Of a stretch of 64,000 nucleotides of DNA, positions 48,269 through 49,840 are shown piece by piece. The stretch comes from an uncultured archaeon (lineage in GTDB: Archaea > Asgardarchaeota > Lokiarchaeia > Sigyniarchaeales > SOKP01): contig CAZDTP010000008.1 in NCBI GenBank assembly GCA_964508365.1, positions 35,513 through 99,512 of the forward strand, written 5' to 3'. Numbering within the stretch: position 1 is the first letter of the stretch; every line of letters begins with the position of its first letter. The notes beneath the pieces were generated by a model that was given only the letters and a program-made list of their open reading frames with translations, ran no database searches and was not told where the DNA came from. The translations under genes and the position numbers were made by a program.

Positions 48269-49714
48269 TTATTTTACCTTTTTATCTTCGATATCGAGAC
48301 CTAATTCTTTTAAGCGATCTCGAATTAAATCGCTTATATCATAGAGATTCTTTTCTCTCAATTTGGTTCTCGTTTCAATAATTAAATTAATGAGATTTTT
48401 TATGAGGTTATCTTTCTCGTCGATGCCAACCGTTGAGAAAGGTAGCGTTTTTGATTTTAAAAAAGGAAAAATCCCGAAAATTTCCTCAATAAACTTGATA
48501 TAATTTAAGAATTGATCTTTGAACGATTCATTAATCTTTAACCCATCTTGTAATATAGCTTTATTTATTTCCCTAAATAGGGTTAATAGCTCAGCTAAAG
48601 CTACGGGAGTATCAAAATCATCGTCCATAGCTTCAATTATTTTACCTTTAGATTCCATAATTTTATTATTCAAAATAGTAAGCTTTTTAGACGGTTTTTC
48701 GCTAAACTCAGCATCGTTAACTTTCTTGATCGTATTAATTAAGCGGTTATATGTTTTCTTTGCTGGTTCCATGCTGTCAGGAGTGTAATTATTTGAACTT
48801 CGATAATGACTCGATATCAGATACCAGCGGATAACCATCGGATCGAAATCTTTTGCAATATCAGATACGGTAAAAAAATTATTTAGGCTTTTTGACATTT
48901 TTTCGTTGTTTACATTCACGTAACCATTATGTAAGAAATATTTAGCAAAAGGTTTTCCTGAATAAGATTCTGATTGGGCAATCTCGTTTCTATGATGAGG
49001 AAATCTTAGATCTTGCCCTCCTCCATGGATATCAATCGTTTCTCCTAAGTAATTTAGAATCATAACTGAACATTCGATGTGCCATCCAGGGCGTCCCTTA
49101 CCCCACGGACTTTCCCAATAAGGCTCTCCTTCTTTCATTTTCTTCCACAAAGCAAAATCACGCTTATCGAGCTTATCCTCGCCAAAAGCAGTATCTTGAT
49201 CGACTATATAATCCTTTTCTTCGCTTTCATTATTATGATCTTTTTTTCTTTGAAGTATTGAAGAATATTTGGGGAATGACTCAACCGAAAAATATACTGA
49301 TCCATTTCGTTCATAAGCGTGACCTTTTGAAATTAATTTTTGGGTGAATTTAATAATTAGATCAATTACTTCCGTTGCTCGAGGATTTCGAGTGTCTTTT
49401 TCAACATTCAACATCTCCATGATTTCTTTGTATTCGCTTATATAGCGATTGCTTATTGTTCTATAATCTTCATTGCTTTCTTGCGAGCTCTTGATAATTT
49501 TATCGTCTATATCAGTGTAATTTTTTACAATGTTTACTTCGTATCCTTTATACTTTAAATATCTATGAATTAAATCAAAAGCGACAGCAGACTTTACATG
49601 GCCTAGATGCGGACTTCCATAAACTGTAACTCCGCAAACGTACATCTTGACTTTTCCAGGCTCTAGTGGCACAAATTCTTCTTTTTGGAATGTTAGACTA
49701 TTGTATATTTTCAT
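48269..49714 (-). CDS. cysS: Cysteinyl-tRNA synthetase (class I)
   Basis: YVCGVTVY..PHLGH, GRPGWHIECS, DIHGGGQDL.FPHH and KMSKS. The true start is ATG 49714; the track ORF extends into the tRNA gene. Confidence 0.97.
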   Translation of the reverse strand: MKIYNSLTFQKEEFVPLEPGKVKMYVCGVTVYGSPHLGHVKSAVAFDLIHRYLKYKGYEVNIVKNYTDIDDKIIKSSQESNEDYRTISNRYISEYKEIMEMLNVEKDTRNPRATEVIDLIIKFTQKLISKGHAYERNGSVYFSVESFPKYSSILQRKKDHNNESEEKDYIVDQDTAFGEDKLDKRDFALWKKMKEGEPYWESPWGKGRPGWHIECSVMILNYLGETIDIHGGGQDLRFPHHRNEIAQSESYSGKPFAKYFLHNGYVNVNNEKMSKSLNNFFTVSDIAKDFDPMVIRWYLISSHYRSSNNYTPDSMEPAKKTYNRLINTIKKVNDAEFSEKPSKKLTILNNKIMESKGKIIEAMDDDFDTPVALAELLTLFREINKAILQDGLKINESFKDQFLNYIKFIEEIFGIFPFLKSKTLPFSTVGIDEKDNLIKNLINLIIETRTKLREKNLYDISDLIRDRLKELGLDIEDKKVK

Positions 49715-49759
49715 GATTGTTGATACACCCAAATTAAATGATTGAGAAGATGGTTTAAG

Positions 49760-49840
49760 AGCCAGTGGAGGGATTTGCACCCTCGATGCTGAAAGCAACG
49801 GCTCTGCAGGCCGCCTCCTTAACTACTCGGATACGCTGGC
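49760..49840 (-). tRNA. tRNA-Cys(GCA) with a long variable arm, 81 nt, no encoded CCA
   Basis: GCCAGCG/CACTGGC acceptor stem + U73; TCCG..AGGA D arm; GCGGC-CTGCAGA-GCCGT anticodon arm; TGCT-TTC-AGCA-TC variable arm; GAGGG-TGCAAAT-CCCTC T arm. Confidence 0.9.

Follow-up and report, generated by a model that had tools for sequence, protein, structure and literature searches.

A long, base-paired variable arm is by textbook account reserved for the tRNAs for leucine, serine and selenocysteine and for bacterial tRNA-Tyr, in which it serves as an identity element. The tRNA for selenocysteine is recognized by a 13-bp acceptor/T domain (9/4 or 8/5), a long D stem, a UCA anticodon and G73. For CysRS the GCA anticodon and U73 are the universal determinants, and this class I enzyme docks on the side of the tRNA that lies away from the variable region. 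SepRS belongs to class II, the synthetase class that faces the tRNA from its variable-region side.

Long arms on tRNAs for cysteine are known from anaerobic bacteria, where the selC* tRNA-Cys species have a tRNA-Sec-like body in which the acceptor/T domain is 8/4 and the anticodon stem is longer (Mukai et al. 2017, PMC5389517; PMC7609411); many lie in linkage with selB*/cysS* copies, and they exist in addition to a normal tRNA-Cys (PMC5389517, PMC7609411). The nematode nev-tRNAs are extra copies with a V-arm that switches charging to leucine (PMC3333845). A census of Asgard tRNA introns, which counts insertions of at least 10 nt and gives medians of 22–23 nt, makes no mention of tRNA-Cys (bioRxiv 10.64898/2026.10.13.758758). 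No mention of a variable arm on tRNA-Cys was found in the accessible reviews and surveys of Asgard Cys-tRNA formation and, as far as the literature could be searched, no published description of an armed archaeal tRNA-Cys was found.

A tRNA-Cys gene with a paired variable region adjoins cysS

The window analyzed here is a 64-kb stretch of DNA from the draft genome of an uncultured archaeon (the host). The sole tRNA that ARAGORN detected in the window was a tRNA-Cys(gca) at 49759-49840 (−), next to the gene for CysRS. The features of the locus are as follows.

49760..49840, minus strand: tRNA-Cys(GCA) gene, 81 nt excluding CCA, with a 7-bp acceptor and a 5-bp T stem (ARAGORN, Rfam RF00005, covariance model R1)
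49760..49760, minus strand: discriminator U73, invariant in all tRNA-Cys genes read in the order
49766..49766, minus strand: A67, mismatched to C6 (49835), found in the host genome only
49778..49778, minus strand: G55 in the T loop UGCAAAU, with an AG-for-GG D loop (sequence)
49785..49797, minus strand: 13-nt variable region UGCUUUCAGCAUC, with a helix of U-A, G-C, C-G and U-A, a UUC loop, then unpaired UC
49805..49807, minus strand: anticodon GCA, followed by G37 (ARAGORN, Rfam)
49715..49759, minus strand: tRNA–cysS spacer, 45 nt, with no oligo-T run and with an A/T-rich box AUUUAAUU ~ 25–30 nt before the ATG
48269..49714, minus strand: cysS, canonical cysteine--tRNA ligase, 481 aa plus stop (TIGR00435)

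The interval 49760-49840 (−) matched RF00005 at 50.3 bits (E 8e-8; gathering score 29 bits) with model positions 1–71 covered, and R1, a covariance model purpose-built from 20 tRNA-Cys genes of the host's order, scored the gene at 89.5 bits, its best match in the host genome. Reading of the sequence gave an acceptor stem of GCCAGCG/CACUGGC with C6 facing A67, a D arm of UCCG-AGUAGUUA-AGGA with G13.A22 and with AG replacing GG (G18-G19) in the loop, an anticodon arm of GCGGC-CUGCAGA-GCCGU, and a T arm of GAGGG-UGCAAAU-CCCUC in which position 55 is G. The original prediction had drawn attention to U73, C6.A67, the T loop UGCAAAU and a 13-nt variable region of the form UGCU-UUC-AGCA plus two unpaired nt, and each of these was found in the sequence, the two unpaired nt being UC. 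With 13 nt, the variable region departs from the 4–5 nt of a class I tRNA, and it has the class II form, that is, more than 10 nt folding into a paired arm. The GCA anticodon, like U73, was invariant in all relatives read. Position 55 is nearly universal among tRNAs and G55 departs from it; all other host tRNAs with a readable T loop carry UUC, so that G55 is peculiar to tRNA-Cys within this genome. In the alignments, every relative read has C6-G67 or U6-A67. The host C6.A67 lies between these two states, both of which occur within the genus, and is either an intermediate of a compensatory change or an assembly consensus error; if not an error, it could be a slightly impaired allele.

The hairpin-bearing stretch within the gene is UGCUUUCAGCA. 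When folded alone, the variable region formed a 4-bp hairpin with a 3-nt loop at −2.0 kcal/mol, which 1 of 200 shuffles equaled. The minimum free energy structure of the whole molecule, a measure that is uninformative for a tRNA, had a non-cloverleaf pairing in which the hairpin was absent (z-score −0.77), and the case for the hairpin therefore rests on comparative evidence and not on energy. The exact insert sequence was found nowhere else in the host genome, and the idea of a mobile mini-element was set aside since the sequence is confined to the tRNA-Cys locus.

The cysS product scored 494.8 bits on TIGR00435 (cut-off 340 bits), covering profile positions 1–458 of 466; cysS is canonical by this family, and it lies where it had been placed, 45 nt downstream of the tRNA gene. 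Its start was taken as the ATG at 49714, picked by its match to the MK(I/V)YNSL starts of relatives. A mechanically called open reading frame of 509 aa (48269-49798, minus strand) runs cysS back to a TTG within the tRNA gene, and this TTG was rejected in favor of the ATG. No terminator-like site (hairpin plus T-run) was found in the spacer downstream of the tRNA gene. The promoter and terminator scans are of the bacterial type and inapplicable to an archaeon, and they were kept only for this absence. The A/T-rich box of the spacer suggests a promoter element and, together with the missing oligo-T run, would fit either a leaderless cysS transcript or co-transcription. Two short-arm relatives (L024, L025) have a T-run and a GGTGA ribosome-binding site in this spacer instead.

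The tRNA set of the host genome

The host draft genome comprises 4.07 Mb in 149 contigs and is rated 100% complete. Homologues of its CysRS are carried by metagenome-assembled genomes (MAGs) titled Promethearchaeota or Promethearchaeia archaeon (e.g., Loki_b31), by which the host is a Loki-type Asgard archaeon. ARAGORN counted 14 tRNAs in the genome without an intron search and 29 with one, and Rfam counted 31; the tRNA genes of the host are heavily interrupted by introns, and tRNA detection in this intron-rich draft is incomplete at ~ 31–37 matches. No second tRNA-Cys was found by ARAGORN with and without introns, by Rfam tRNA, by R1 (the runner-up of which was a tRNA-Arg(GCG) with a T-loop intron) or by BLAST with the canonical type B gene of relatives, described below. 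Whether the gene is the sole tRNA-Cys of the genome had been posed as a check on the original prediction, and ARAGORN, R1 and BLAST agree on one copy; it is the only detected tRNA-Cys in a genome in which a heavily interrupted second copy could escape detection.

The supposition that the host uses selenocysteine was borne out by a SepSecS gene at 477 bits (C19:8273-9574). A full-length PSTK-like gene was also present, at 154 bits and under the cut-off (C7:22050-22790). A search of the host assembly for tRNA-Sec (RF01852) returned only ordinary tRNAs, below cut-off, and the tRNA-Sec of the host may be interrupted by an intron or unassembled. Neither SepRS nor SepCysS was found in the host genome: the best TIGR00470 match reached 77 bits against a cut-off of 381, and the best TIGR02539 match 27 bits against a cut-off of 365.

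Distribution, covariation and inheritance of the arm

A tRNA-Cys gene could be located and typed in 119 of the 150 genomes sampled from the host's order. A hairpin-bearing variable region of 12–14 nt was present in 55 of these: 23 of 37 typed genomes of the host genus, 23 of 37 of the largest sister genus, 4 of 8 and 1 of 4 in two further genera, and all 4 genomes of another family of the order. The other 64 have a 5-nt variable loop (UAUUC, UUAUC, UUUAC and similar), and at the level of the order the distribution is patchy. A survey of variable arms had been suggested alongside the original prediction; by its outcome the long arm is ordinary in the genomes of this lineage, but no description of it was found in the literature as far as this could be searched. 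Armed tRNA-Cys is likewise common in public MAGs. Matches of 83 nt to R1 in one family (f2) were discarded as long-arm tRNA-Cys candidates, being tRNA-Ser(GCU/GGA). In two genomes, a third and divergent short type of tRNA-Cys was observed beside the cysS-linked gene (L119, G121:C22:33015-33087; L136, G147:C215:6678-6749), with an acceptor of GCAUGCG or GCACGCG and a T loop of UGCAAGU.

The arm stems of the relatives are GCU/AGC, GCC/GGC, GUC/GAC, GGC/GCC or GC/GC, with U before and A or G after, and their loops are UUC, UUU, UUUC, AUUA, AUUC, AUCA, AUCC, GAAA or GCAA. Across 29 distinct sequences, the four pairs of the arm gave standard pairs in 112 of 112 cells. Two of the four showed double changes (C-G/U-A/G-C and U-A/C-G) and the other two varied to G-U only. 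No shuffle and no slid register matched this degree of pairing, and the T stem of the same alignment behaved alike. Complete pairing combined with compensatory change indicates that the arm is a helix kept by selection.

A maximum-likelihood tree was built from 28 CysRS proteins encoded beside tRNA-Cys in the host genus and two outgroup genera. The state of the arm required 2 changes on this tree, compared with a mean of 9.4 after shuffling, and none of 500 shuffles was as low. Fourteen long-arm species, the host among them, formed one CysRS clade with 100/99 support. Within the host genus, the arm stayed while compensatory changes took place in two other helices of the gene, the T stem and the anticodon stem. 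From so few changes on the CysRS tree, the arm is taken to be inherited stably within the host genus and to follow the clade.

The D arm, the A18/G55 elbow and the adjacency to cysS all recur in near-identical relatives of 73 nt with a 5-nt variable loop, and so they are not class II adaptations tied to the arm. Moreover, many long-arm genes of the sister genus g18 have U13-A22 and hence a 4-bp D stem. The proposal that a class II-like D arm goes together with the variable arm was consequently dropped. The D arm resembling those of Ser, Leu and Tyr tRNAs, with AG in its loop, is present as predicted, but as a feature it belongs to this lineage of tRNA-Cys and not to the arm.

The arm and the SepRS route

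Many relatives carry another tRNA-Cys, here termed type B, with a GG D loop, a UUC T loop and a 5-nt variable loop (examples are L138, G060:C27:5198-5270; L145, G020:C2:86649-86721; and L146, G041:C126:11068-11139). Most of these relatives encode SepRS, and type B was not found in the host genome. Within the host genus, type B was present in 12 genomes, of which 11 were among the 13 with SepRS, and neither type B nor SepRS was found in the 23 long-arm genomes of the genus.

In the order as a whole, a SepRS match was obtained in 7 of 55 long-arm genomes and in 36 of 64 short-arm genomes. Among the seven long-arm genomes with a SepRS match, four carry a class I tRNA-Cys as an additional copy, and in two, with completeness ratings of 72% and 78%, no additional copy was found. 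Candidates for a second copy in G043 and G010 were identified as genes for tRNA-Phe, Thr and Ser. One of the seven has no more of SepRS than a fragment: in the long-arm genome G134, a SepRS fragment of 276 bits (C13:4-870) has an in-frame TAG and meets a contig end, and is possibly a decaying gene. Order-wide, therefore, genomes in which no tRNA-Cys but the armed one was detected are almost exclusively genomes without a SepRS match. Note, however, that this is an association and not a rule, with few independent events (about one contrast in each of three genera), with exceptions in the incomplete genomes G115 and G043, and with many short-arm genomes that also lack a SepRS match.

Interpretation and alternative explanations

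The most probable interpretation of these data is that the host gene is the working tRNA-Cys of the genome and a member of a tRNA-Cys lineage linked to cysS, type A, in Loki-type Asgard archaea (Promethearchaeota). This lineage is characterized by an unusual elbow, A18/G55 in place of G18/U55, and in many clades by an extra insertion of 8–9 nt that forms a 3–4-bp hairpin in the variable region. The hairpin is most likely kept in the mature tRNA, which would be charged directly with cysteine, most likely by the ordinary CysRS encoded 45 nt downstream and by way of GCA and U73. The arm would be tolerated because class I CysRS docks away from the variable region. Docking geometry also offers a plausible reason for the link to SepRS: the arm would be selected against as long as SepRS must use the tRNA and would be free to persist afterwards. 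The arm seems to be able to become the sole form of tRNA-Cys mainly where the SepRS route is missing, and genomes that have SepRS usually carry a canonical class I gene (type B) as well. Taken together, we consider it probable that the host tRNA-Cys is an ordinary CysRS substrate with an inherited, maintained and probably tolerated arm, and that it is the only detected tRNA-Cys of a lineage without the SepRS route. The weakness of the host arm, at −2.0 kcal/mol, counts against this explanation, as do the other pairing preferred by the whole-molecule fold, the C6.A67 mismatch, the incomplete detection of tRNAs in the draft and the few independent events behind the link to SepRS.

The original prediction offered a co-evolved CysRS/tRNA pair. 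In such a pair the arm, with the G55 elbow, would be a positive element for CysRS or a negative one against SepRS, SepCysS or SerRS. The gene does adjoin cysS, and the long arm is seldom seen alongside SepRS except in genomes with a further tRNA-Cys of class I; but many genomes combine SepRS with a type A gene of the short-arm form, and adjacency is equally common without the arm, as tRNA-Cys lies directly upstream of cysS at 47 of 75 Asgard loci gathered by protein similarity, 21 of them long-arm and 26 short-arm. In long-arm and short-arm species alike, complete CysRS proteins have 479–483 aa and equal domain coverage, and alignment of the two groups revealed no insertion, deletion or domain change that tracks the arm. 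Six CysRS columns do separate them (for example, K/R vs N at 156 and Y vs F at 298), but with the long-arm species falling into just one or two clades, their effect is confounded with that of phylogeny. The enzyme thus shows no clear mark of co-evolution with the arm, and this explanation is judged unlikely. Beyond the Asgard archaea, the CysRS relatives nearest in sequence (L237-L241), at 43–45% identity, are bacterial, from Desulfarculus and Clostridium. A gene copy that is decaying or unused, as the acceptor mismatch and odd loops might suggest, is scarcely credible: C6.A67 is confined to the host genome and G55 breaks a nearly universal position, but no other tRNA-Cys was detected in this genome, which is rated complete, G55 is kept with A18 throughout the order and every stem shows compensatory changes there, and the C.A mismatch falls between two pairs that are both seen in the genus.

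It could also be that the insert is excised, as a very short intron or by other processing, to leave a class I mature tRNA. The tRNA-Cys genes of the order are indeed hot spots for introns, which occur in the D loop, near 9/10, at 32/33 and 37/38, in the T stem and in the T loop and diverge fast; six or more positions are used in orthologous genes, sometimes two at once (L013, L015, L023, L024, L098, L109, L116 and others), which makes the locus a good one for the study of intron gain and loss. Like an intron, the insert occurs in some close relatives and is missing from others, and a fit to splicing motifs has been reported for some insertions in the variable region of Asgard tRNAs (bioRxiv 10.64898/2026.10.13.758758). 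At 8–10 nt, however, it is shorter than the introns of the same gene (20–41 nt) and than the median Asgard intervening sequence of 22–23 nt. Bulge-helix-bulge (BHB) structure, that is, two 3-nt bulges around a 4-bp helix, was judged by eye on the sequence and alignment: the helix starts right after the anticodon stem with no unpaired base 5′ of it, there are no 3-nt bulges and no flanking exon–exon helix, and neither a bulge-helix-bulge nor a bulge-helix-loop could be drawn. The insert is also far more conserved than the true introns, GNRA tetraloops recur in it, and its size and flanks (U ... UC) are those of the host tRNA-Ser arms. Excision is thus very unlikely, and the earlier view that the 8–9-nt insert is too short for an intron and lacks a BHB holds. 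The other half of the original prediction, a dual-identity tRNA that receives serine from SerRS through its arm (or carries phosphoserine), with later conversion of the amino acid to Cys or Sec, could draw on the likeness of the arm to local tRNA-Ser arms in size and flanks, on the presence of SepSecS and a PSTK-like gene, and on the absence of a detected tRNA-Sec from the host assembly. The gene differs from tRNA-Ser in having U73 with its long arm, as all tRNA-Ser genes read in the host and relatives have G73, and from tRNA-Sec in its 7/5 fold, short D stem of 3–4 bp, GCA anticodon and U73, and it gave no match to RF01852. GCA reads the Cys codons and, being the only detected tRNA for UGU/UGC, this tRNA must deliver cysteine; a full CysRS adjoins it, and SepRS and SepCysS, which a substrate of that route would need in the genome, were both not found. 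Dual identity is accordingly judged extremely improbable.

An anti-determinant role is a further and, on balance, doubtful elaboration. The arm, perhaps together with A18/G55, might hide type A from SepRS (or from SepCysS/SepCysE), in which case ancestral Loki-type archaea would have had two insulated pools of Cys-tRNA, type A with CysRS and type B with SepRS, and host-like lineages would later have lost SepRS and type B and retained the armed tRNA alone. If true, the two types would be naturally occurring tRNAs for the same amino acid that are mutually orthogonal.

Implications

A whole group of Asgard archaea with an arm on its only detected tRNA-Cys, and with that arm paired over a long divergence, shows the split between class I and class II tRNAs to be looser than had been assumed. 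With the armed tRNA-Cys, nature provides a test of whether and how an arm matters to CysRS, SerRS and SepRS, and its lineage is a source of candidate orthogonal CysRS/tRNA pairs. Tools are affected as well, since tRNA finders and intron censuses with a threshold of at least 10 nt will mis-score or miss the Asgard arm. Should the link to the loss of the SepRS route hold, it would be relevant to the way in which the two routes to Cys-tRNA coexisted in the archaeal relatives of eukaryotes.

Comparison with known systems

Short archaeal BHB introns are, like the arm, present or absent among close relatives and found in an intron-rich gene, but the host-type insert of 8–10 nt has no bulges and no flanking helix and instead has a conserved, covarying stem. 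The nematode nev-tRNAs likewise place a long arm on a tRNA with an anticodon of a class I family, whereas in the host no other tRNA was detected for the codons of the armed tRNA, which has retained the discriminator of tRNA-Cys. With the bacterial selC* tRNA-Cys, the host gene shares Cys marks (U73, and GCA in some) and a long variable arm. It differs from selC* in being archaeal, with relatives in Promethearchaeota MAGs, in having a 7/5 fold in place of 8/4 and a tRNA-Sec-like body, in being the sole detected tRNA-Cys and in its linkage to the only cysS examined.

The closest likeness of the arm itself is to the tRNA-Ser genes of the host, in which the variable region also consists of U, a short G-C-rich helix and UC before the T stem, and the arms of tRNA-Cys in relatives often have the same GNRA tetraloops as host tRNA-Ser. 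The tRNA-Ser arm (U, 4 bp, GNRA, UC) folds at −7.1 kcal/mol, compared with −2.0 for tRNA-Cys, and the rest of tRNA-Ser is unlike tRNA-Cys, with G73, another acceptor stem and a normal GG/UUC elbow. In its other parts the host gene resembles the canonical class I tRNA-Cys(GCA) of archaea, with which it has in common GCA, U73, G1-C72, G37, the 7/5 fold and G15 with C48, and from which it departs in G55, in AG for GG and in a paired variable region of 13 nt instead of 4–5 nt. The canonical archaeal tRNA-Cys is a substrate of CysRS (and of SepRS where present), and the host gene adjoins a canonical cysS.
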